DNA from: a virus
Taxonomy: Duplodnaviria > Heunggongvirae > Uroviricota > Caudoviricetes
Direction: 5' to 3' (one strand)
IMG/VR virus record: IMGVR_UViG_3300028048_000083
Coordinates: 59,364 to 123,363 of that record
Length of the DNA: 64,000 nucleotides
Part shown: positions 5-59,425 of the stretch, one piece after another
Numbering within the stretch: the first letter of the stretch is position 1
Layout: each line of letters begins with the position of its first letter
Notes under the pieces: model-generated
What the model saw: the letters and a program-made list of their open reading frames with translations, nothing else
Told to the model about the DNA's origin: nothing
Databases searched by the model: none
Program-made: the position numbers and the translations under genes

Positions 5-613
5 ATGGGGGTCAAGAAAAAGACCGAATGGACGGAGTATAAGATACAACAGTGTCTGAGGAAGTTTTTCCTGTCGGAGTCAACAAAACGATATGAGTTA
101 TACAACTTGTATGTTTATGATTGGGAAAGTGACTACCTGACAATAACACGGTCAGGTATTGCCTATGAATGTGAAATCAAAATATCGAAGCAGGATTTCC
201 TGAACGACTCGAAAAAACACAACAAGCACGTAATTATAGCAGAGGGCAGATTGCCAAAGGGTCGTCCGAACTATTTCTACTATGCGGTTCCAGACGGGTT
301 GATATCCGTTGAAGATGTTCCAGAGCATGCTGGGCTTGTATATGTGACACCTTACGGCATACGAATAGTTAAAGAGGCGAAAAAACTCCATGACGGGAAA
401 TTCGACTATGAAGAAACCAAGCTGATGGACAAACTCTATTACAACTATGTGCATTATCGGGATTTGTACAAGGAAAGTGATATCACAGAGATGAAGAAGG
501 AAATAAAGTGGCTGAACAGGCAGATTATGGAATACGACGATATGCTTTCGGAAAGGGTGAACGAGATAGACGAACTGAAAATAATGCTTAAAAAACACGA
601 TATAGAATGCTGA
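5..613 (+). CDS. PD-(D/E)xK nuclease-like protein with C-terminal coiled coil (partial at window edge?)
   Basis: Motif ...VYDWESD...YECEIKIS fits the D...ExK pattern of PD-(D/E)xK nucleases. Lys/Glu-rich coiled-coil tail. Start lies at the window edge. Confidence 0.35.
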   Translation: MGVKKKTEWTEYKIQQCLRKFFLSESTKRYELYNLYVYDWESDYLTITRSGIAYECEIKISKQDFLNDSKKHNKHVIIAEGRLPKGRPNYFYYAVPDGLISVEDVPEHAGLVYVTPYGIRIVKEAKKLHDGKFDYEETKLMDKLYYNYVHYRDLYKESDITEMKKEIKWLNRQIMEYDDMLSERVNEIDELKIMLKKHDIEC

Positions 614-2487
614 ACATTAAAGATATTGAGGAAAGAAACCACGCTGAACCGCCAGAAGTCAAGGAAATAAGGGATAATATTATAAATTCATTCAAACGTC
701 TGGAATTTCAGGAAGGTCCTCATAAATATTATGTGCATAATGACGATGGGAGCGTTGTGGAATTGCCTAGTGTGTCAGCAATGACTCATCAATTCAAACC
801 AGAGTTTGAGACAGACTACCAGGCTGAAAAATATGCCTTGAAACATGCAATGGAAAAAGAGGCTGTATTGCGAATGTGGGAGGAAAACAATGTAAGAGCC
901 ACGAACAATGGAACTTCGACCCATCTCTACGGCGAAGGATTTATGCATTTCTTCATGGGTCACCCAGAAAAAATATCCCCCATAGTAAAACCCCAATACG
1001 AAAAAGGGTATCTGATACCTTATTCAAATAAACAGGAAGGTGTCCTGCAGTTTTACGAAGATTTGTTCACAATCGATTCAATATATCCAGTAATGCCAGA
1101 AGCTCAGGTTTATATGGGCATCAATCCGAATTATAGCGATATAATTCCGTATGCTGGAACATTCGACATGCTGTTTACGTACAAAGCACCTGACGGCAAA
1201 TGGAAACTGTTGCTATATGACTGGAAAGGTCTTCCGTTGGATACCCCAATATTAACAACCAAAGGTTTTAAAACAATGGGTACTCTAACCATTAACGATA
1301 TTGTATACGATAAGGATGGAAATGAGACCAGAATATTGCACATATCTGATATTCATAATAACCCTTGTATGAAAATCACATTTAATGATAATTACAGCAT
1401 TGTGTGTGATATTGACCACAGATGGTTAGTTAGTTCAAAAAAATGGGATAACGACAGAGTTATGACTACCAAAGAACTTCAAGAATACCTATCTGAGATT
1501 GGTGATAAATCAAAAAACAGCTATTATGCTGTCAGAATATCTAATAATAAACCGATTAGCAACACTAATCTGATTGAACTACCTATTGACCCGTATGTGT
1601 TTGGTGTGTGGCTTGGTGATGGGCATTCAAAAGCGGGCTATATTACAAACATGTATGATGGCATTTTCAATGAGATTGAAAAACGAGGTTATAAAGTAGG
1701 TAAAAATGTAAACGACGGTGTACATTGCGGGAAAGCAAAAACTAGATGTGTTTTTGGTTTATACACTAAACTGAAAAAATTAGGCGTATGTGGAAACAAA
1801 CACATTCCAGATTGTTATATTGTAAATTCAACCTATGAGCAAAGGCTTGATTTACTTAAAGGTATAATGGATACTGATGGGTATTATAATAAAACACGAA
1901 ATCGGTTCAGTATATCAACAACTAGAGAAAGCCAAGTTGAATTTGTGTGTAAATTATTAACAAGTTTAGGAATTAAACCTACGGTAATAAAAGCAAAAGG
2001 AAAATGTAACAATTGTAAAAAGAAAAAAATATTTGATAAATTTGATGTGTGCTTTTCAACCGATATTTATCCGTTTTTGGTAAGGCGTGTTGAAATTAAA
2101 CCAAGTAAAAAAAGTTATGATACGTGCAGAATTATATCATCAATTACCGCTTGTGATAGTGTACCGACAAGATGTATTGAAGTTGACAGTCCAACTCACA
2201 CATATTTAGCAGATAAAATGCTGTTGGTTACACATAACACCAACAAGTCGTTATATAAGGATTATTCCAGGGAATTTGGCAAAATGGCTTTGGAACCTTT
2301 TGACGACCTTTACGATGAGGATTACTCGTATTATATACTCCAATTGTCATGTTATTCTCTTTGTTTAATGCAGCTTGGGTATGAGATTGCGGACAGAAAA
2401 ATAATCTGGCTTAAAGAGGATGGTTCCTATGACAAAGTAAGTGTCCCAGATTTCACCTCCAGGGTTAGGGTCGCTTTACATAAATAA
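607..2487 (+). CDS. Intein-containing PD-(D/E)xK exonuclease-like protein (YqaJ/lambda-exo-like exteins)
   Basis: 626-aa ORF. N-extein ends ...LLLYDWKG (D-x-K). C-extein carries a YYILQLSCY motif resembling the QxQ/Y motif of lambda-exonuclease/RecB-family nucleases. Central 336 aa carry Hint and LAGLIDADG motifs. Confidence 0.5.
   Translation: MLNIKDIEERNHAEPPEVKEIRDNIINSFKRLEFQEGPHKYYVHNDDGSVVELPSVSAMTHQFKPEFETDYQAEKYALKHAMEKEAVLRMWEENNVRATNNGTSTHLYGEGFMHFFMGHPEKISPIVKPQYEKGYLIPYSNKQEGVLQFYEDLFTIDSIYPVMPEAQVYMGINPNYSDIIPYAGTFDMLFTYKAPDGKWKLLLYDWKGLPLDTPILTTKGFKTMGTLTINDIVYDKDGNETRILHISDIHNNPCMKITFNDNYSIVCDIDHRWLVSSKKWDNDRVMTTKELQEYLSEIGDKSKNSYYAVRISNNKPISNTNLIELPIDPYVFGVWLGDGHSKAGYITNMYDGIFNEIEKRGYKVGKNVNDGVHCGKAKTRCVFGLYTKLKKLGVCGNKHIPDCYIVNSTYEQRLDLLKGIMDTDGYYNKTRNRFSISTTRESQVEFVCKLLTSLGIKPTVIKAKGKCNNCKKKKIFDKFDVCFSTDIYPFLVRRVEIKPSKKSYDTCRIISSITACDSVPTRCIEVDSPTHTYLADKMLLVTHNTNKSLYKDYSREFGKMALEPFDDLYDEDYSYYILQLSCYSLCLMQLGYEIADRKIIWLKEDGSYDKVSVPDFTSRVRVALHK
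1228..2238 (+). mobile_element. Intein: Hint domain with LAGLIDADG homing endonuclease
   Basis: Block A-like GLPLDTPILTTKG. LAGLIDADG motifs VFGVWLGDGHS and LLKGIMDTDGYY. Terminal ...LLVTHN followed by +1 Thr (penultimate His, terminal Asn). The N-terminal boundary is approximate because there is no Cys/Ser at position 1. Confidence 0.65.
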
Positions 2488-4166: not shown

Positions 4167-5615
4167 TTAAAGTGTCATGTCGTCTGGTATGTTTTTTGCG
4201 TATTCAGTAAGCAGCTTGCTGATAAACTGCTCAGCATTGAAGTTGCAAGCCAGGAATTTAAGCATAGTCGGGTCATAGCCACTGATGAAGATACTGCCAT
4301 TGGCATCAACACGAACCGATTGGGGTGAGGTTCTGTTTCGTGAGTTGAGATTCCACCACACGAGTTTTGTCTTGATGCCGCGTTCACGCCATCTTTTCAT
4401 GGTTTCCTTGTTGGTTTCCTGGTATCCGCCGAAGTCAAATTCCATGTCGGACAACACAATCAGATATTCAGGGTACTCGGACTTAAGACCGCTCAGTATT
4501 TTCATGACCGCAGCAAAGTCAGTGTTACTGCAGTCACCAGTATACATTGAACGGATTTCCTTGTTATACTGATGTTCGTTGAGTTGTGGCAAAGATGTAA
4601 GATAATTATAGCTATACCTAGAACTACAGGAAGATTTGTCACCAAGGGTTATGAGATGGGGTTCGGAACTGAAAGTAATAACCTGATTCGGACAGTATGT
4701 GCTTGTTTTGGCAAGATAATGACCGATAGACAAAGCCTTACCCATGGCATCATCATTAAACATTGAACTTGACGTGTCGACAATCGGAATCCAGTTGCCG
4801 CTTATTTTCTCAATCTGGGAGAATGCCAAATCAGTGTCTATAGTGTTGGCTTTACGGTAGATGTCATATACCGTTGCTGTGGAGAAATTCATTTTCTTTT
4901 CACCCTTTTTGACAGAGTCAAGGTAAGCCTGGAAGCGGTCAGCCATGTCGGTTTTCTTGGCTTTGTTGGTGCCAGCGAAACGTGCCCAATATTTCAAAAG
5001 GGCTAAAGTGGGGATTTTGTCGAATTCGATTTCATCCTGTTCGCCTTGGGAAAGTTTGCTTTCCACTGTGGGGCATTTGACGAACTTGTTGTACTCTTGT
5101 TTCGTCATGCCAAGCAAGTTACGCATATGGCAAGCCATAAGGGTACTCTTGGCGACTTTGCCGTCTTTCTTCGCGACGTAATGCGGCATCCATTTTTTGG
5201 CCAGTTCGTTTCCGCTACGGCATTGGTCAAACAGGAACTTAAGCCAGTCTTCGTTGAATTCCTGACCTTTTGGCATTTCCCAAAGGTCATCAAAACGACC
5301 AGCAAAAGCCACAGCCTCAGGCGACAAACCGCTTTGGTACATAAGTACACGACCAAGGTCACGGTATTTCATGCCATGACGGGGGTCGCGCATGAACATT
5401 GCAAACAGTTTCTCAAGGTCACTGTTGCCGATTTTGACTTCATTGAGATGTTTTTGGTAATATTCAGCCTGGAAAATCAAATCAAGCAATTGGTTACCTG
5501 TACTTTTGTGTGTAAGGTCGCCGTTTTCGGTAAGCTTGTAATTGAAAAGTTCCGAAAGCTCGCTGTTGGAATGGTTTTTAACGGCATTTGCCAAACTATT
5601 GAAATCTATCTTCAT
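4167..5615 (-). CDS. vWA-domain protein (DUF2828-like)
   Basis: 482 aa. MIDAS-like IPIVDTSSSM motif. The overall layout resembles phage DUF2828 (TROVE-like plus vWA) proteins. Confidence 0.55.
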   Translation of the reverse strand: MKIDFNSLANAVKNHSNSELSELFNYKLTENGDLTHKSTGNQLLDLIFQAEYYQKHLNEVKIGNSDLEKLFAMFMRDPRHGMKYRDLGRVLMYQSGLSPEAVAFAGRFDDLWEMPKGQEFNEDWLKFLFDQCRSGNELAKKWMPHYVAKKDGKVAKSTLMACHMRNLLGMTKQEYNKFVKCPTVESKLSQGEQDEIEFDKIPTLALLKYWARFAGTNKAKKTDMADRFQAYLDSVKKGEKKMNFSTATVYDIYRKANTIDTDLAFSQIEKISGNWIPIVDTSSSMFNDDAMGKALSIGHYLAKTSTYCPNQVITFSSEPHLITLGDKSSCSSRYSYNYLTSLPQLNEHQYNKEIRSMYTGDCSNTDFAAVMKILSGLKSEYPEYLIVLSDMEFDFGGYQETNKETMKRWRERGIKTKLVWWNLNSRNRTSPQSVRVDANGSIFISGYDPTMLKFLACNFNAEQFISKLLTEYAKNIPDDMTL

Positions 5616-5641
5616 TGTTTTTTTGTGTTGAAAATTTATGT

Positions 5642-5678
5642 TATAACCGAAATTATTCTGTTTTTTCCAGGAAAACCA
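5642..5678 (-). promoter_or_regulatory. Conserved upstream motif (class B), instance
   Basis: Plus-strand TATAACCGAAATTATTCTGTTTTTTCCAGGAAAACC, lying upstream (minus sense) of the 4167-5615 gene. Confidence 0.4.
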
Positions 5679-5730
5679 AAAATTTTTAAAGGGGATGCGA
5701 TTACACCCCCTTTAAATGTAATCAGTTGTT

Positions 5731-6204
5731 TTAGAACGGGAGGTCATCGTCCGCTGTTGATTCTGGGACAGGCTCAGGTGTCGGGGCGGCTTTCTTTGGG
5801 GCAGCCTTTTTGGGGGCGGCTTCCTGTACAGGCTCCTGTGAGGGGACTGTTTGCATAGGTGCCGTCTGTGCATCCTGTGCGTCGTCATCGCGGCGTAATC
5901 CGCCGTAATATTGGACGTCGATTGCCCTGATATCCCTGCCAATCTCGTCATGACCTGTCTTCGTACTTGTGTAGGTACGGTCAGTTGGGGTACCGACCAC
6001 ATAGACATTGCTTCCCTTCTTAAGGGACTGGCACCATTTTTGGAGACCGCTGTCCCATACAGTGATACTATACCAATAAGTCACGTTTTCTGGGTCGTTG
6101 TATTCGTGGTTTGCCAGTCTGAATGTTGTGAATTGTCTGCCACTTGAAGTCGTCTTGACTTCTGGGTCATTACCAAGATGACCTGAAACAAAAATTGTTC
6201 TCAT
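5731..6204 (-). CDS. ssb: Single-stranded DNA-binding protein
   Basis: OB-fold-like N-terminus (MRTIFVSGHLGNDPEVKTT...), Pro/Ala/Lys-rich linker, and acidic tail ending DDDLPF. Confidence 0.85.
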   Translation of the reverse strand: MRTIFVSGHLGNDPEVKTTSSGRQFTTFRLANHEYNDPENVTYWYSITVWDSGLQKWCQSLKKGSNVYVVGTPTDRTYTSTKTGHDEIGRDIRAIDVQYYGGLRRDDDAQDAQTAPMQTVPSQEPVQEAAPKKAAPKKAAPTPEPVPESTADDDLPF

Positions 6205-7090
6205 TTTGAAATTTTTTTAATTGACTTATAATTTTAATTGACTTTGTTTGAAATTAGTGACCCCGACAGGACTCGAACCTGCAAGACCTTTCGGCACCTC
6301 TTTAGGAGAGAGGGACGCTTCCAGTTACGTGCTACGAGGCCAGTATATAAATTATCTAGTGTCGGCATACTCATATTAGTTGGCAAATAAACCGATTATT
6401 TCCATACCTTTCATGTGCTTTCAATTCCGTCAGGTTCCTTTCCATGTTCGAGCTTTCTATACCATCCAAAACACTTTTCGCTAACCTTATCCAATTCCAT
6501 GTGGTAGCATCTAACATAAACCATTGCCACAATTTTACCTGGTTTGTTATCTAGTTAAATGGTAAAATTGGCGATATTTATTAGTTTATCTCAACTATTT
6601 ACTCATGCTGAATACCCAACCTTTTACAGCCAGTTGAGCTATAGCTTTGTTTTTTAGTCAAACATACTCCTACTGGGTGAGTTGGATGGTATTAATAACC
6701 ATAGGGACGTTTCTGGACTTACCAGAGGTATGATGGTGTCTACTTACTTCCATTCACCATTAGTGCAATCCGACACAATCCGTTTATGGCTTTCACCAGT
6801 TTATGTTTCCTAAATACAGTTTCCTTACTATACTAAGGTGACTCGGTCTGTGGTTCTTACGGGACTTTGTCTTTTTGGTATTTTGTCTCTTGTTTACATA
6901 TCTACCTTAAAGTGAGACTACTTTACTTTTAAATCCAATTTTTACCATTGGACTTGTCCCGTAGTATTCCCTGTTTTGATATGGACAGGGAATTACCACT
7001 CGATAACTCGTTACCTTTTCTAACCTTTAGGGTTGTAGGATAACCGACACTAGACAAATTATTTCAAAGACCTGTTATTTAAACCTGTAA
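6205..7090. other. ORF-free ~880-bp region: candidate large structured ncRNA and/or replication origin
   Basis: No ORF of 60 aa or more in any frame across 886 bp, inside an otherwise gene-dense genome. Several local hairpins, e.g. CCCTGTtttgatatggACAGGG at 6969-6990, and a long-range stem CGGGAC(6862)/GTCCCG(6955). Flanked by ssb and the tRNA-like element. Confidence 0.3.
6258..6341 (-). tRNA. tRNA-like element, possible tRNA with CCU anticodon and long variable arm
   Basis: Read on the minus strand: acceptor GGCCUCG pairs with CGGGGUC (two G-U pairs), T-arm GCAGG-UUCGAGU-CCUGU, anticodon-like stem CCUCU/AGAGG with loop CUCCUAA, variable-arm hairpin GCC-GAAA-GGU. No encoded CCA. The D-arm is non-canonical, with 4 nt between acceptor and D-stem. 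Confidence 0.4.
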
Positions 7091-7465
7091 TTATTGATTA
7101 AGTTTATCAATAATCGAGGTTACGCTTTCGTTGACATCAATTCCAGCAAACGCCAGATTGGTGATTATAACTACCGTATTTCCGTTTGAGGATTTGTATA
7201 CCCTACTGATAATGTCGCTTGGTATGGCGATTTCATCGTTGTTTGTTACGGAATGAAGTATGATGAAATTACGGCTGTCGCCTATTTTTTTGATAATGTC
7301 GCTCGTTTTTTCATTTACCTCAAAAACTGTATCTTCTTTATCTTTAAGATAGATGGTGCTGTTTTTGGTGGTGTTAGAGTGGCTTGTAAAGCACACAATT
7401 TCATCAACGTTGAAACCAATCACTTCATTGGTGTCTTTCTTGTGCAGTATAATAAATTTGCTCAT
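7091..7465 (-). CDS. hypothetical protein
   Basis: 124-aa ORF. A GTTGTATATTTG promoter-like element (TAnnTTTG) lies immediately upstream. Confidence 0.5.
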   Translation of the reverse strand: MSKFIILHKKDTNEVIGFNVDEIVCFTSHSNTTKNSTIYLKDKEDTVFEVNEKTSDIIKKIGDSRNFIILHSVTNNDEIAIPSDIISRVYKSSNGNTVVIITNLAFAGIDVNESVTSIIDKLNQ

Positions 7466-7810: not shown

Positions 7811-8425
7811 TTATATAACCGTTTTTGTTGACTTTTTTCTTCGTTTTTCTTGCTTTTTTTCGGGAATCCAGTTAATGTCCATGGGCCATACTTCCAAGCC
7901 AGGTTCAAATTTGATATGGAATTTTTGGCATTCGTGTTTGTCCAATGTGAATTTTTTACCTTCAAAAGGTGTAATCTGTTTCATAATGACAATACCCATT
8001 TCAATGTCATTCACTGAATATATTGTCTTTACACATTGGTATTTGATAATAATGTCTGGCGAACCGTCTTTCGGTTTGATGCGCTGGTAGTAATATCTGC
8101 CTATCTTGAATTTGGTCTTAATCCTGTTTTTGGCTCGATGTTTGGTCAGGTATTTTGTCTGATATGTATTCTTGTTATCAGACAAAGACACGTTCTCTTC
8201 GACAGGTGAGGGAACTGGTGATGTTGACATGGTCTTTTTCTTGTGTTTTTTATTGTCAGCCATTACATATGCATTATATCCACCCGTAGTGTCAATCATG
8301 ATAGGATGACCACTTGTTACATAATATTTACCTGTAGTGTCAATCATGATAGGATGACCACTTGTTGACTCCATAACATTATTGTTTAATGTGGTTACAT
8401 ACAATTTGTTACTACTTGGATTCAA
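7811..8425 (-). CDS. hypothetical protein with internal tandem peptide repeat
   Basis: 204 aa. Two exact copies of a 33-nt unit (8296-8328 and 8343-8375) in the CDS encode TSGHPIMIDTTG twice. Basic C-terminal half. Confidence 0.5.
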   Translation of the reverse strand: MNPSSNKLYVTTLNNNVMESTSGHPIMIDTTGKYYVTSGHPIMIDTTGGYNAYVMADNKKHKKKTMSTSPVPSPVEENVSLSDNKNTYQTKYLTKHRAKNRIKTKFKIGRYYYQRIKPKDGSPDIIIKYQCVKTIYSVNDIEMGIVIMKQITPFEGKKFTLDKHECQKFHIKFEPGLEVWPMDINWIPEKKQEKRRKKSTKTVI

Positions 8426-9521
8426 TCATCTTAAGTTCACGGGAAGTCTGATTGTAGATGTCAACCAGTGCACGTTCCATGGTTTCACGGTTTTTCTCGC
8501 CAGCATCATGGATTTTGCGGACTTCTTTAAGCATTTCAATGAACTGCTTGTTGACGTCTTTGAGTGTCTCAAGTTCAACGATTGTCTGTTCACTTGCACG
8601 GGCTGTTTCCTCGGAATTGTAGCGCACGTTTTTGGCTGTAGCCTTCATCATGCGGTTGGTCGCACCTGAAACCATCTTTGTCGCATCGATTGCGCTTTTC
8701 TGTTTGTTAATCATGATGGCAAGCGCCAGTTCGTTTTTCCATAACGGCATAACCTGGTTGATTATGTTCTCGCATTTGTCGATGATGGCGTCGTTGTTGG
8801 CTTGAGCTGCCATGATATGGAACTGGTTGTTTGAAAGTATGTGCTCGGTAACTTCCAGGTCGGCGATTTTCTTGGATATTGCGTTGACCCAGTTCTGCAT
8901 GTTCTGCACATCCCACTGGCTGTTTTCAGGGTCGTTTTGCATTTCTTTGAGTTTTGCCTCATTTTCTTTCAGTTTGAGCTTAAGGGCAACAATAAGCTCC
9001 TTGAGACGGTCAATGCTGACGTCGTTGTTCCTGAACATCGATTCAAGTGTACTGTTGTCTTTTTTGGCTGTAATTTTGGCTGCGTCCATTTTGGCGCAGA
9101 TTTTCGAAACATTGTCCTGGATAGTGTCGGACTGGATAAGCACTTTGTCGACGGTCTTCACCAGGGAACGGAGAATTGGCATCGAGCGAAGGAACGCCTT
9201 GAACTTGTTGTTTGGGTCAAGGTCGCTGATGTCGACCATGTTCAGCTGAGCCAGGGTGTCGTTGACACAGGCGATAATCTCGTCGTTGTTTTTGGAACGT
9301 GCGGAAGAAAGAATACCTTCGCTTGACTGTGAAATTGTTGAATTGATTTCGCTGCCATACACCTGAAGTGTGGTTTTGTCGTTGATATCCACAGATTCGG
9401 CAATAGCAAGATAAGCCTGTTTTTCCTCGTCGCTGATGTTTGCGATATAGTTTTCATAATCCACACTGCGTTTAAGGCTCACCAGTGCGTTGTTGTTGTT
9501 GGTATTGTTATTTCCTTCCAT
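8412..9521 (-). CDS. TelA-like (toxic anion resistance family) coiled-coil protein, tentative
   Basis: 369 aa. Asn-rich N-terminus and long helical, coiled-coil-prone body. The similarity to the TelA/KlaA family is judged by eye only. Confidence 0.35.
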   Translation of the reverse strand: MEGNNNTNNNNALVSLKRSVDYENYIANISDEEKQAYLAIAESVDINDKTTLQVYGSEINSTISQSSEGILSSARSKNNDEIIACVNDTLAQLNMVDISDLDPNNKFKAFLRSMPILRSLVKTVDKVLIQSDTIQDNVSKICAKMDAAKITAKKDNSTLESMFRNNDVSIDRLKELIVALKLKLKENEAKLKEMQNDPENSQWDVQNMQNWVNAISKKIADLEVTEHILSNNQFHIMAAQANNDAIIDKCENIINQVMPLWKNELALAIMINKQKSAIDATKMVSGATNRMMKATAKNVRYNSEETARASEQTIVELETLKDVNKQFIEMLKEVRKIHDAGEKNRETMERALVDIYNQTSRELKMIESK

Positions 9522-10205: not shown

Positions 10206-11633
10206 TTATTTTTTAAAATTGTAATATTGTTCAACCAACGCCTTAAGATAAGGATTATTATCCGCATCAGCATAAATTTGATATTTATAACGGATGTCAA
10301 GCAGAATTTGATTCATTTTTTCAGCATCCATATGTTCTGGAAGGGTTGACTCAGCAATAGCTTTGTCAAGTGCATCTTTCTTATTTTCGAGTTCCTTTAT
10401 AAGATATTCATACTCATACTTATGGTTACGAATATCAAGTAGGAAATCAGCGTCAATACCCTTGCGGTAAATCTGAACCTTGCCAGTCTGGGCGATTTCA
10501 AGACCCATATTAAGCAGACGGAAGCAGTGCATCACATTCTTGCTGTCGTAATTGTGACCAAGATTGCTCTCATAGCGAACCTGGCTGCGTTTCTGAACCC
10601 ACTCCTGATACTGGTGGTATTTATTGCAATGTTGGGTAAACCCATCCTTATTATAAGTCATAACACAGATTGGCTCCTCATTCTTCGGAATTGAAGAACA
10701 ACGCACAGTGTCACTCTTGTTGATGTCATTGACGATATACTTAACACCATCCTCTTCAATGATTTTTGCTGCAGTTAAAACTTTGGTATCCTCGTCATAG
10801 AAGTAGTAATCACCTTTGTTATCAACCTTGATTTCTTTATTATTCTTTACTTCATCCACAGGAATCTTGACACCGTAATCCTTTACAATGCCACGATATC
10901 CGATTGGTTTTTGGGTATTATCGAACCATTCTCGTATTTCATGATGGAATAAATCAAACACGTCGTCAACCACAAAATTGTAATATTTTTTATCGTTATA
11001 AAACTCGCAGAATTCTGTATATTTGTTGTGGTTATGTGCACCGAAATCGTAATATACACCGTAGCAGTCAGGCATGTTGTTGAGTGAAACAAGACCGCAG
11101 TACTTCTGTTCAAGACCACGGGCATCAAGCCACTCCTTCATACAGGCACTACCCTGTTTGTATGAAGTAAAACAGAAATCAAGCGGCTCCTTACGTTCTG
11201 TAATGGGCTGGACACACATCTTGTTATAACCACGAGCTCGTTTAATCTGGGCAATGGCATAGCCAATAAATGAATTGAAACAATCCTTGGTCACAAACTC
11301 CTGACGATGCTTTTTAAGCTCAGTGATAATCGGGTGTTCATAGATAACAAAACGGTCGTCAATGAAAAGGGATTCAAGGATATTTGGATTACTTGAAAGC
11401 AGAAGGGTCAGATACTTCTTAAGGGAGTACCATGTATTGTCATGTTTATCATCAGCAATCTCATCCTGGAAATCAAGTCCAAGTCCAAGTACCTGGTTGA
11501 TAGGCTCAAGGTACACACCACCATGGTCTTCGTCGGACTCAGGGGTGTTGGTGCCGTATGCTACGCTTCCGCGCACATATTCATACAGGAGCCATCCGTT
11601 ATTTCTTATATCGTCAAATGTGTATTTCTTCAT
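10206..11633 (-). CDS. Pol-beta superfamily nucleotidyltransferase (COG3541-like)
   Basis: N-terminal LYEYVRGSVAYGTNTPESDEDHGGVY matches the nucleotidyltransferase GS-x-AYG...SDxD signature. 475 aa. Confidence 0.6.
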   Translation of the reverse strand: MKKYTFDDIRNNGWLLYEYVRGSVAYGTNTPESDEDHGGVYLEPINQVLGLGLDFQDEIADDKHDNTWYSLKKYLTLLLSSNPNILESLFIDDRFVIYEHPIITELKKHRQEFVTKDCFNSFIGYAIAQIKRARGYNKMCVQPITERKEPLDFCFTSYKQGSACMKEWLDARGLEQKYCGLVSLNNMPDCYGVYYDFGAHNHNKYTEFCEFYNDKKYYNFVVDDVFDLFHHEIREWFDNTQKPIGYRGIVKDYGVKIPVDEVKNNKEIKVDNKGDYYFYDEDTKVLTAAKIIEEDGVKYIVNDINKSDTVRCSSIPKNEEPICVMTYNKDGFTQHCNKYHQYQEWVQKRSQVRYESNLGHNYDSKNVMHCFRLLNMGLEIAQTGKVQIYRKGIDADFLLDIRNHKYEYEYLIKELENKKDALDKAIAESTLPEHMDAEKMNQILLDIRYKYQIYADADNNPYLKALVEQYYNFKK

Positions 11634-45668: not shown

Positions 45669-45683
45669 ATAATAACAATAATT

Positions 45684-45896
45684 TTATTCAATTTCTTTGA
45701 AGACCTGTGCATCTCCTGCTGGCACATCACCATAGTCAGTAACATAATAACGCTTATGGGTTTCGTTATCTTTCATTTCAATACGTATTTTTCTGACAAC
45801 TCCTGAAACAATGTTGCCAGTTTCGGAATCTTTGAAACAAATCATATCGCCAGGTGAGAAATTGAGAAAACCTTTTACGTTATATTCAAATACCAT
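45684..45896 (-). CDS. hypothetical small protein
   Basis: 70-aa ORF. Confidence 0.35.
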   Translation of the reverse strand: MVFEYNVKGFLNFSPGDMICFKDSETGNIVSGVVRKIRIEMKDNETHKRYYVTDYGDVPAGDAQVFKEIE

Positions 45897-46099
45897 AGTT
45901 ATTGTGCATTTTAGTTATCATAGTCATCAAAATCTTCAGGATGGTAAGTATATTGCATTGAAAAGCATAACCACCCTGCCAGTATTCGCCATTCACTTAT
46001 ATCAAAAAACGGTAATACATGAAATTCCCATATAGGATTCTGTATTGTAAAATGAATACTTAAATGTTTTGTTAAGTAAAAATCTTTTTTCATGTTGTT

Positions 46100-46309
46100 T
46101 TAATAATAAAAGTGGAATAGTGATTTAAGGTTATCGAATTTCTCGTCTTTGTCAATCGGTTCAATGGTTCCGTCTTCGTTGGCTTTGACTACCATCCAAC
46201 CAACGAGTTCATTTGTGCTGTCGTCAATCAGGGCTGACACTTTGCACTTTTCGGCGAATCCAAAGCATTCGGTTAACTGGTCAATGATTGGTTTTAATTC
46301 TATTTTCAT
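46100..46309 (-). CDS. hypothetical small protein
   Basis: 69-aa ORF. Confidence 0.35.
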   Translation of the reverse strand: MKIELKPIIDQLTECFGFAEKCKVSALIDDSTNELVGWMVVKANEDGTIEPIDKDEKFDNLKSLFHFYY

Positions 46310-46311
46310 AA

Positions 46312-56894: not shown

Positions 56895-56924
56895 AACAAT
56901 AAACTTAAAACAACATAAACAGGT

Positions 56925-56958
56925 TAAGCGGACAATATGAAAATATGCCCGCTTTTTT
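56925..56958. terminator. Bidirectional rho-independent terminator
   Basis: AAGCGG...CCGCTT stem followed by TTTTTT on plus, with A-rich sequence upstream. Located between the convergent plus cassette and minus genes. Confidence 0.5.
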
Positions 56959-56981
56959 AAAATGTGTATGTAGTTAAAGTA

Positions 56982-57221
56982 TCACATTATCACCACACGT
57001 TTTTGTTTGGTTTCATTTTTTGCCTTTTCTGGAATTTTGACAAGTGCTCCGATTCTGAAATGGTTGTCATCAATTAAGAAAATCTCGTGTTTAATGAGGT
57101 TTTCATATCCGTAGTCACTGATTATCTCATTGAGAAACATGGTTATTTCAGCATCCGCGTTGGTAGTCCCGAAATATGATAGTAAACCACTTGTACGGTA
57201 TTTCACTATTACTTTTTCCAT
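56982..57221 (-). CDS. hypothetical protein
   Basis: 79-aa ORF. Confidence 0.4.
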   Translation of the reverse strand: MEKVIVKYRTSGLLSYFGTTNADAEITMFLNEIISDYGYENLIKHEIFLIDDNHFRIGALVKIPEKAKNETKQKRVVIM

Positions 57222-57229
57222 GATGGTAG

Positions 57230-57421
57230 TTAACAGTTTATCTTGATTGCACAGTTTTGTTCTACCAGTTCAATGAGTTCATCCATGGTCACATCCATTT
57301 CTTCGAATACTGGGGAGTAGTCGCCCCTGGTTGTTATGTCATCAAACCTTTGGCTGGCTTTTCTGTCGTTTTCGAACATCAGCTTGTCAAACCAGTAGTT
57401 TTTTGAAACCTTTACTTTCAT
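57230..57421 (-). CDS. hypothetical small protein
   Basis: 63-aa ORF. Confidence 0.35.
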   Translation of the reverse strand: MKVKVSKNYWFDKLMFENDRKASQRFDDITTRGDYSPVFEEMDVTMDELIELVEQNCAIKINC

Positions 57422-57430
57422 GCTGGCAGA

Positions 57431-59236: not shown

Positions 59237-59425
59237 TCAGTCAACCCATAGCCAATCCAGGAATTTCAGCCACATAGACAGTAAAAAAGGCATTGTATAT
59301 CCAAACAGGATATATTCAAAACCCCAGAGGAAAGGTATTTCGACTATTATAAACGGTACCAACATTATTCCAATGATGATTCCTGCTAGCAGTTTAATGA
59401 CATTAATCAGTCTGTTTTTCATTTT
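59237..59425 (-). CDS. small membrane protein
   Basis: Trimmed to MKNRLINVIKLLAGIIIGIMLVPFIIVEIPFLWGF.... Confidence 0.35.
   Translation of the reverse strand, partial: KMKNRLINVIKLLAGIIIGIMLVPFIIVEIPFLWGFEYILFGYTMPFLLSMWLKFLDWLWVD

Follow-up and report, generated by a model that had tools for sequence, protein, structure and literature searches.

We analyzed 64,000 nucleotides (nt) of a virus of the class Caudoviricetes (IMG/VR record IMGVR_UViG_3300028048_000083, positions 59,364 to 123,363), referred to below as the window, in which a gene-free island lies between the ssb gene and an open reading frame (ORF) of 124 amino acids (aa). About 735 nt of this island, on the minus strand, are a conserved structured RNA, not a spacer, an origin or a decayed gene. 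The RNA has several domains and constitutes a new, conserved family. Its parts are a terminal helix, a 5' domain that contains a hypervariable insert, and a conserved, ornate 3' domain; the helix ends just before a tRNA-Arg. An initial annotation made from the letters had proposed a large ornate noncoding RNA beside a tRNA; it was right about the kind, a covarying structured RNA directly 5' of the tRNA, but not about the families that it named. Very few large, highly structured RNAs are known in bacteria and phages beyond rRNA, RNase P, transfer-messenger RNA (tmRNA), and introns, with GOLLD, ROOL, OLE, and raiA as the main examples. The family described here is comparable to these in size, with strong covariation and a clear modular layout. 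The best overall explanation, to which we give a probability of roughly 0.45, is that this new large phage RNA family is the RNA partner of a Ro60-like protein encoded nearby.

Homologs of the RNA were aligned with MAFFT only, without fitting to any structure, in an alignment (A3) of 16 sequences that represent about nine clearly distinct lineages. The 60 consensus pairs that RNAalifold predicted from it include 40 with compensatory double changes, and 93.6% of the 942 cells in these pairs form standard pairs. When the 3' partner was moved by one to three columns as a control, 29 to 42% of the cells paired and 9 to 15 pairs showed double changes, compared to the 40 observed. None of 500 column shuffles matched the observed pairing values. 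A search for compensatory changes in aligned homologs was the check that the initial annotation had suggested, and these 40 of 60 pairs are its outcome. The constrained minimum-energy fold of the window's RNA, mapped onto A3, adds an extended terminal helix (P1) of about 20 bp, the helix stack P4-P9, and P11, a long-range helix with covariation in 12 of its 13 pairs. The entire region is closed by a 19-nt inverted repeat (I2; 6347-6365 with 7044-7062). A scan for pseudoknots and tertiary pairs returned only invariant, ambiguous candidates.

The RNA is assigned to the minus strand because of its G-U cells, the drop in pairing on the opposite strand, and the fold z scores. When the same pairs were read on the opposite strand, 85.6% of the cells paired, and 91 G-U cells account for the difference from 93.6%. 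Folding of the 749 nt that separate the tRNA from the upstream ORF gave a z score of -6.1 on the minus strand versus -2.5 on the plus strand. The near-identical homologs L011 to L016 carry three substitutions in the 3' strand of P1, which keep the pairing as G-U, U-G, or G-C in a minus-strand RNA only. This retention of G-U pairs on one strand indicates that the island encodes an RNA rather than a DNA element. A covariance model (R1) was built for the 238-nt core from ten close sequences, with the distant members excluded. It recovered the excluded homologs L036 (E = 3e-34), L047 (1e-19), L037 (3e-13), and L039 (6e-10), and a search of the window found no further copy beyond the one RNA.

The island spans positions 6205 to 7090 (886 bp), between ssb and the 124-aa ORF, and a six-frame check confirmed the original observation that ORFs of at least 60 aa are absent from all frames; no other such stretch in the 64 kb is as long. 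The runners-up measure 276 bp (at the window edge) and 201 bp. The next-largest regions without an ORF of at least 80 aa, 45669-46311 (643 bp) and 56895-57430 (536 bp), contain ORFs of 60 to 79 aa. Recoding of a stop codon to open a gene in the island was ruled out; TAA, TAG, and TGA are each present in all six frames, and therefore no stop-codon reassignment rescues a gene. No ORF is conserved across the RNA homologs, whose longest ORFs (27 to 103 aa) differ in position and strand. With no conserved ORF and stops in all frames, divergent or degraded coding sequence in relatives, an option that had been raised at the outset, does not describe the region. The suggestion of a replication origin also found no support. 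Only short two-copy repeats were found in the island, with no iterons or repeat arrays, and GC skew showed a local dip but no switch, at a GC content of 35 to 40% that resembles the surroundings; the substitutions, moreover, are strand specific and RNA-like. In the phage sequences of GenBank, the sole match to the island is a 47-nt tRNA piece in Bacteroides phage BF1-TP2.

The RNA does not match any known family searched. Rfam 15 was scanned with the whole window in gathering mode and with 1 kb of the island region at E ≤ 10. Further scans at E ≤ 1 covered 10 kb around the island, four divergent homologs, and two relatives without the RNA. At these thresholds the only match was tRNA, with none for GOLLD, ROOL, OLE, raiA, RNase P, tmRNA, introns, omega, HEARO, or Y RNA, and ARAGORN found no tmRNA in the window. 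The candidates named in the initial annotation (GOLLD, ROOL, tmRNA, group I or II intron, RNase P) were thus not borne out by any Rfam match at E ≤ 10 or by an ARAGORN tmRNA. The ROOL env-120 sequence (supplement of PMC12286853) showed no similarity to the RNA by eye. In the work of Kretsch et al., GOLLD was matched by cmsearch at E < 1e-5. Literature searches on ornate or large structured phage RNAs and on noncoding RNAs of rumen jumbo phages returned no description of this RNA. The family is suited to submission to Rfam and would improve the annotation of large phage genomes.

Homologous loci were retrieved through contigs encoding the neighboring proteins, a DNA pattern in Joint Genome Institute (JGI) metagenomes, BLAST among the fetched loci, and the 124-aa protein family alone. 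At least 12 lineages, all of them large phage-like contigs from metagenomes, have the RNA at this locus, and their Ro60-like proteins are 60 to 98% identical to that of the window. Contigs with the Ro60-like or LytTR-fold genes number in the hundreds in Logan and ENA. The relatives' contigs are metagenomic, reach 245 to 400 kb, and carry phage genes such as a terminase-like gene. The host is probably a member of the Bacteroidota, and the sample labels SHIW14, STEW19, and XIEF21 resemble those of ruminant-gut studies, an origin that we presume from the labels only. In each lineage, a gene-free gap of 535 to 1,078 nt separates the homolog of the 124-aa ORF from ssb, and the RNA itself measures about 490 to 850 nt (about 735 nt in the window, with a minimum of 490 nt in L039). 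We compared the window at the nucleotide level with the L027, L030, L042, and L045 lineages. Identity was 66 to 67% for the whole RNA, 73 to 79% for the 238-nt core, 60 to 65% for ssb, 59 to 62% for the 124-aa ORF, 74 to 75% for the Ro60-like gene, and 94 to 97% for the tRNA (L027, L030, and L045 only). By these identities, the RNA is conserved to the same degree as its coding neighbors. Neither the 124-aa protein nor two conserved DNA patterns had a match in IMG/VR, and the SSB search of IMG/VR led to L001, a relative without the island. One match of a pattern scan of GTDB genomes (L026) fell inside a coding ORF and was discarded as chance.

The features of the locus are listed in the table below. 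P1 has the sequence UAGUGUC(A/G)G paired with C(U/C)GACACUA in most lineages and GUGCC paired with GGCAC in L045. In L037, L039, and L047 its sequence is fully replaced on both strands yet remains complementary, with AUGUGUCUGGAAUG and CAUUCCAGACACAU in L037, UGUUUAAAGGGCU and AGCCCUUUAAACA in L039, and more compensated changes added in L047. In L036, both strands are shortened to match. The 5' domain contains an invariant CCCUAAAGGU.AGAA block in A3. In the 3' domain, of about 450 nt, the P4-P9 stack closes a multibranched core formed by P10 to P14. A3 columns 389-442 with 830-899 and 520-535 with 776-791 form helices that are 71 to 94% paired and show many compensatory changes. The P10 arm carries the invariant sequence ACCAUCAUACCYCUGGUAAGYCCAGAAACGUCCCUAUGGU. 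The hairpin at 6969-6990 and the complement CGGGAC(6862)/GTCCCG(6955), pointed out in the initial annotation, both exist and both occur in the predicted fold; they are real, but they lie in the variable insert and are not conserved among homologs.

Features of the RNA locus in the window (two intervals joined by "with" are the strands of a helix)
Feature	Position	Strand	Basis or remark
482-aa Ro60-like protein (helical ring plus vWA), candidate RNA partner	4167..5615	-	Pfam DUF2828 and DUF7788
Terminator-like hairpin, 14-bp stem followed by T run, just after ssb	5685..5716	-	Consensus scan only
ssb, downstream of tRNA	5731..6204	-	Pfam SSB, E = 1.5e-16
tRNA-Arg(CCU), 85 nt, 13-nt variable arm, two extra nt before D stem	6257..6341	-	ARAGORN; Rfam 36.9 bits
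Large RNA core, about 735 nt as aligned	6344..7078	-	Homologs in at least 12 lineages, covariation, no conserved ORF
P1, 3' strand; ends 6 nt before first tRNA base	6347..6367	-	Substitutions in L011-L016 keep pairing
Remaining 3' domain: variable hairpin region, P14, 3' strands of P11 and P4-P9	6369..6609	-	A3 helices
P4-P9, outer stack of 3' domain	6767-6820 with 6369-6426	-	
P14, with GGAAAGGAAC block	6427-6451	-	
P11, encloses P12, P13, and variable hairpin region	6678-6692 with 6459-6473	-	
Most conserved core of 3' domain: 3' strands of P3 and P2, 5' strands of P4-P9 and P11, P10 arm, P12, P13	6610..6847	-	R1 recovers distant homologs; 73-79% nucleotide identity
P10 arm, carries invariant block AACGUCCCUAUGGUUA	6698-6737	-	
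Hypervariable insert inside P3	6849..7001	-	Alignments A2 and A3
P3, encloses hypervariable insert	7002-7017 with 6835-6848	-	Covarying pairs
Conserved 5' domain, with 5' strands of P2 (7035-7040) and P3 (7002-7017)	7002..7040	-	Invariant A3 columns; P2 and P3 covary
P2	7035-7040 with 6822-6828	-	Covarying pairs
P1, 5' strand; about 20-bp terminal helix with 6347-6367	7041..7062	-	Inverted repeat I2; 9 of 11 core pairs covary
Conserved motif GUCUUUGAAAUAAUUUG (GUUCUUUGAAAUAAUUUG in most homologs), at and just upstream of P1 5' strand	7055..7071	-	Nearly invariant in A3
124-aa ORF, LytTR-type DNA-binding fold, candidate regulator	7091..7465	-	Directly 5' of RNA

The GUUCUUUGAAAUAAUUUG-type motif at 7055-7071 occurs only once in the window and may be a promoter or part of the 5' leader. 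A role of GTTCTTTGAAATAATTTG as a general promoter was ruled out, as the motif is unique in the window. The motif at 7055-7071 is complementary to the invariant AAAGGAACU block; this pairing shows no covariation and is weakened in the window.

The tRNA-shaped element noticed initially at the left edge of the island was identified by ARAGORN as tRNA-Arg(CCT), the sole tRNA of the 64 kb, and was matched by the Rfam tRNA model above its gathering score of 29 when a shorter stretch was searched in E-value mode. The whole-window scan in gathering mode missed it, as the speed filters hid it. It folds into a cloverleaf at minimum energy. The first description holds for the acceptor GGCCUCG/CGGGGUC, the T arm, the CUCCUAA loop of the anticodon, and the variable arm with its 13-nt hairpin, and the irregularity of the D arm was traced to a connector of 4 rather than 2 nt before a 4-bp D stem. 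Acceptor pairs 4, 5, and 6 show compensatory changes in L027, L045, L023, and L030, indicating that the tRNA is under selection. It bears G18-G19, A20, C35, U36, and a canonical T loop. A20, C35, and U36 are arginine identity elements in Escherichia coli. In the cloverleaf, the T loop, and these residues, it is like class II-like phage tRNAs and tRNA-Arg; unlike ordinary bacterial tRNA-Arg, it has the 13-nt variable arm and the 4-nt connector from acceptor to D stem, and a large RNA is fused to it, with no more than 6 nt between them. The long ORFs of the window contain 7.6 AGG codons per 1,000, which fits a phage carrying its own tRNA-Arg(CCU). The stops of 40 long minus-strand ORFs were TAA in 25, TGA in 14, and TAG in 1.

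A tRNA or a tRNA-like module has its docking site in the insert enclosed by P3; this module is intact in several lineages and decayed in the window. The inserts of L020 and L024, in which the acceptor stem is poor and the anticodon loop enlarged, scored 35.3 and 35.1 bits with the Rfam tRNA model, and that of L022 scored 25.6 bits, below the gathering score. The insert of L042 is nearly identical to the L024 module, as judged from the alignment only, and ARAGORN called an 84-nt tRNA-Ile(TAT) in the insert of L036. These modules are in normal order and not permuted. In the window and in L023, L027, L030, and L045, only tRNA-like remnants are left; the insert of the window holds the hairpin, the CGGGAC...GUCCCG stem, and mere remnants of D- and T-arm-like sequence. 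The lineages with remnants are exactly those with the tRNA-Arg(CCU), placed 6 to 8 nt after P1. L037, L039, and L047 have neither an insert module nor the tRNA-Arg. The tRNA slot is thus filled, decayed, or replaced by a 3'-fused tRNA, depending on the lineage, which opens the link between ornate RNAs and tRNAs to experiment. In L020 (620-740, minus strand) and L022 (6620-6745, minus strand), a tRNA-like element of about 105 nt follows the RNA; it has an 8-bp acceptor stem, D and T arms, and an aberrant long middle, and received no call from ARAGORN or Rfam.

The 482-aa gene downstream of ssb, which the initial annotation does not mention, provides a candidate protein partner. Besides its Pfam domains, the protein matches PHROG 850, "RNA-binding protein," and it had no Pfam TROVE match and no sequence match in the PDB. 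An AlphaFold2 model built with 56 homologs had a predicted local distance difference test score of 85.9 and a predicted template modeling score of 0.86. The best Foldseek matches of this model were Ro60 structures (1yvr and 2i91, E about 4e-7), and the protein is accordingly predicted to fold as Ro60, with a ring of helical repeats and a C-terminal vWA domain. Ro60/TROVE proteins differ in that the neighbor is too divergent for Pfam TROVE and matches DUF2828 and DUF7788 instead. We found no paper on DUF2828 in phages. The window also encodes an RlaP nucleotidyltransferase (10206-11633, minus strand), and in relatives Thg1 and an AAA_33/NT5C kinase-phosphatase lie next to the Ro60-like gene (L037, 6545-8710; L047, 9154-10402).

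In bacteria and phages, the Y RNAs that partner Ro60 are encoded within 4 kb on the same strand; their 5' and 3' ends pair into a stem that carries a GNCGAA motif, and they also contain a tRNA-like domain (PMC4201824). Phage phiLo encodes two Y-like RNAs just upstream of its Ro60 gene (PMC12135203), and in jumbo phages TROVE proteins have been counted among the RNA repair systems together with RlaP, Thg1, and kinases (PMC7824862). The RNA described here resembles YrlA, Yrn1, and Yrl1/2 of phiLo in lying upstream of a Ro60-fold gene, within 4 kb and on the same strand, in having its 5' and 3' ends joined in a long stem (the covarying P1), in carrying a tRNA-like module in several lineages, and in its RNA repair gene context. 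A search around the Ro60-like gene of the window, of L001, and of L041 detected no canonical small Y RNA. We favor the Ro60 partnership because of the position and strand of the RNA, its terminal stem, its mimicry of tRNA, and the repair genes around it, and because no other candidate partner presents itself. By analogy, the RNA could be a giant Y-RNA-like partner of the Ro60-like protein, an identity that we propose tentatively and at somewhat less than even odds.

In this scheme, the RNA and the tRNA would be made as a single transcript, possibly continuing into ssb, and cleavage by RNase P at the 5' end of the tRNA would fix the 3' terminus of the large RNA. Once mature, the RNA would work in trans as a scaffold and partner the Ro60-like protein, whose gene lies about 0.7 kb downstream in the same orientation. 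The terminal stem and the tRNA-like module of the RNA may engage or load the Ro60-like ring, and the large 3' domain may recruit or organize other factors for tRNA repair, tRNA protection, or RNA decay during infection. The RNA would in that way belong to a phage kit for RNA repair and quality control, with RlaP in the window and Thg1 and a kinase in relatives.

Several observations weigh against a Ro60 partnership of this kind. Described Y RNAs measure about 100 to 200 nt, and the RNA studied here, at 490 to 850 nt, is three to eight times the size of any of them. Its tRNA-like part is not permuted, is dispensable in some lineages, and has decayed in the window. The Ro-binding motif GNCGAAN0-1G is missing from the 5' strand of P1 (UAGUGUC(A/G)G), the only CGAA-containing blocks (ANCGAAAAG and YCGAAC) are both in the 3' domain, and no Y_RNA-type Rfam model matched the RNA. 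L001, whose Ro60-like protein is 66% identical, and L041 have no RNA at the locus in the 8 to 9 kb examined of each, and L001 has no 124-aa ORF there either. Because the lineages inherited the synteny between the RNA and the Ro60-like gene, they do not provide 12 independent pieces of evidence for a functional link. Strict co-occurrence with the RNA is shown by the ORF with the LytTR fold, not by the Ro60-like gene.

The RNA nevertheless offers two leads beyond GOLLD and ROOL, namely, the conserved neighbor with a Ro60 fold in an RNA repair context and the strictly co-occurring LytTR-fold gene. It is rather doubtful that the RNA and protein form the first giant Y-RNA-like ribonucleoprotein and link GOLLD/ROOL-type RNAs to Ro60 RNA quality control. 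If this were true, the ornate phage RNAs of the GOLLD/ROOL type would be tied to Ro60 quality control, and there would be a testable function to account for why ornate RNAs are joined to tRNAs. No link between GOLLD and Ro60 was found in the literature searched, nor do those papers report a Ro60-like neighbor for GOLLD.

We rank the explanations in the order Ro60 partner, autonomous RNA of the GOLLD/ROOL type, cis-acting platform, ribozyme, and no RNA gene. The second of these holds that the RNA is an autonomous third class of the GOLLD/ROOL type, for example, a self-assembling multimeric shell in which the linker presents or encloses tRNAs, and that the Ro60-like gene is a mere syntenic neighbor. 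It is unlikely in our view, and it and the Y-RNA-like partnership are not mutually exclusive. GOLLD is likewise borne by phages and prophages, measures 0.5 to 0.8 kb or more, has a very elaborate fold and adjacent tRNA genes, and combines one well-conserved part with a poorly conserved part or linker that in some members contains a tRNA (PMC12286853), a likeness to be taken as an analogy of layout only. ROOL is also a large ornate RNA of phages and prophages, often near tRNAs and with a variable internal linker (PMC5737381, PMC12286853). Its name stands for Rumen-Originating, Ornate, Large, and the relatives of the window, too, seem by their contig and sample names to derive from ruminant-gut studies. 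The RNA of the window fits this company in being phage borne, 0.5 to 0.85 kb in size, and ornate, with many GNRA-like and A-rich elements, in having an adjacent tRNA, and in an insert that sometimes holds a tRNA, like the GOLLD linker (PMC12286853, PMC5737381). A 3' domain so large and conserved suggests that the RNA is more than a tether for a protein, and L001 and L041 retain the Ro60-like gene without the RNA.

Neither the sequence nor the structure, however, matched the GOLLD or ROOL models, and conserved self-complementary loops were not identified. Homology to GOLLD is undetectable, given no Rfam match at E ≤ 10; hosts and environments are not the same, the variable insert lies here within the 5' third and is enclosed by P3, and a Ro60-like gene is a conserved neighbor. 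ROOL differs in its helix layout as well as in the missing Rfam match, and the RNA here is accompanied by a single tRNA in 64 kb and not by a tRNA island. An autonomous GOLLD/ROOL-type RNA also predicts little, as the functions of GOLLD and ROOL are themselves still open. Because the defining model matches failed for GOLLD, ROOL, and Y RNA/YrlA, the claim with respect to all three is that the RNA works like them and not that it is one of them.

It is improbable that the RNA is only a long cis-acting leader or processing platform for the downstream tRNA and ssb, with no function in trans. RNA, tRNA, and ssb do keep the same order and strand in all lineages, P1 and the tRNA are just 6 nt apart, and the terminator-like hairpin comes only after ssb. 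The tRNA is missing, however, in about half of the lineages that retain the RNA, an inserted gene separates the RNA from ssb in L022 (for a 530-aa ATPase) and in L023 (an 88-aa ORF), and several lineages have a TAnnTTTG-type promoter box in the same interval. A conserved multidomain structure of about 700 nt also far exceeds the needs of known leaders.

Still less probable is a catalytic RNA that has escaped recognition, such as a very divergent RNase P-like, intron-like, or other ribozyme tied to tRNA processing. Size and complexity are typical of large ribozymes, the RNA is linked to tRNAs, and it has invariant unpaired blocks (CCCUAAAGG, AACGUCCCU, which is AAAGUCCCU in L037 and L039, and GGAAAGGAAC). 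AAAGUCCCU in L037 and L039 may faintly resemble the CR-I region of RNase P. No RNase P, group I, group II, or other ribozyme model matched at E ≤ 10, though, and flanking exons are lacking.

That the island is no RNA gene at all, but a replication origin by ssb, a decayed gene, or a nonautonomous mobile element bounded by inverted repeats, has hardly any chance of being correct and is already contradicted by the covariation: ssb is adjacent, the 19-nt terminal inverted repeat recalls transposon ends, and the island is missing from some related phages, but 40 internal and terminal pairs show compensatory changes with strand-specific G-U pairs, iterons, repeat arrays, and a GC-skew switch are absent, stops occur in all frames with ORFs that differ between homologs, and a fixed position in lineages of 60 to 98% protein identity, a single copy per window or locus, and covarying internal helices make a mobile element unlikely.

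The 124-aa ORF had no match in Pfam. Its predicted fold consists of two beta5-alpha repeats with the LytTR beta fold. Homologs always lie directly 5' of the RNA and evolve fast, with 17 to 49% identity among lineages. A CsrA-like identity of the protein was ruled out by the LytTR fold, and the RNA has 16 GGA occurrences, compared to 11.7 ± 3.0 expected.

The terminator-like hairpin at 5685-5716 suggests that the RNA, the tRNA, and ssb form one transcription unit that ends there. The TAnnTTTG-type box that precedes ssb in several lineages fits the Bacteroides -7 promoter consensus. Between the tRNA and the start of ssb, two 13-nt direct repeats of TTTTAATTGACTT (6215-6227 and 6232-6244, plus strand) lie 17 nt apart, and similar AAAGTCAAAT repeats precede ssb in L001 and L023. 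The TTTTAATTGACTT repeats may be an operator or another regulatory site. In L022, the gene between the RNA and ssb (4896-6488, minus strand) encodes a 530-aa protein with an HATPase_c_3 domain (GHKL ATPase) and occupies the position of the tRNA-Arg of other lineages. L039 has two TnpB-type genes (OrfB_IS605/Cas12f-like; 5825-7030 and 9348-9425) beside the Ro60-like gene. A TelA-like protein, encoded at 8412-9521 (minus strand), belongs with RlaP to the RNA-repair-type genes around the locus. A 626-aa protein encoded at 607-2487 (plus strand) matches terminase large subunit PHROGs and has homing-endonuclease (LAGLIDADG/Hom_end) matches at residues about 411 to 468; this part of the terminase-like protein may be an intein or an endonuclease insertion.

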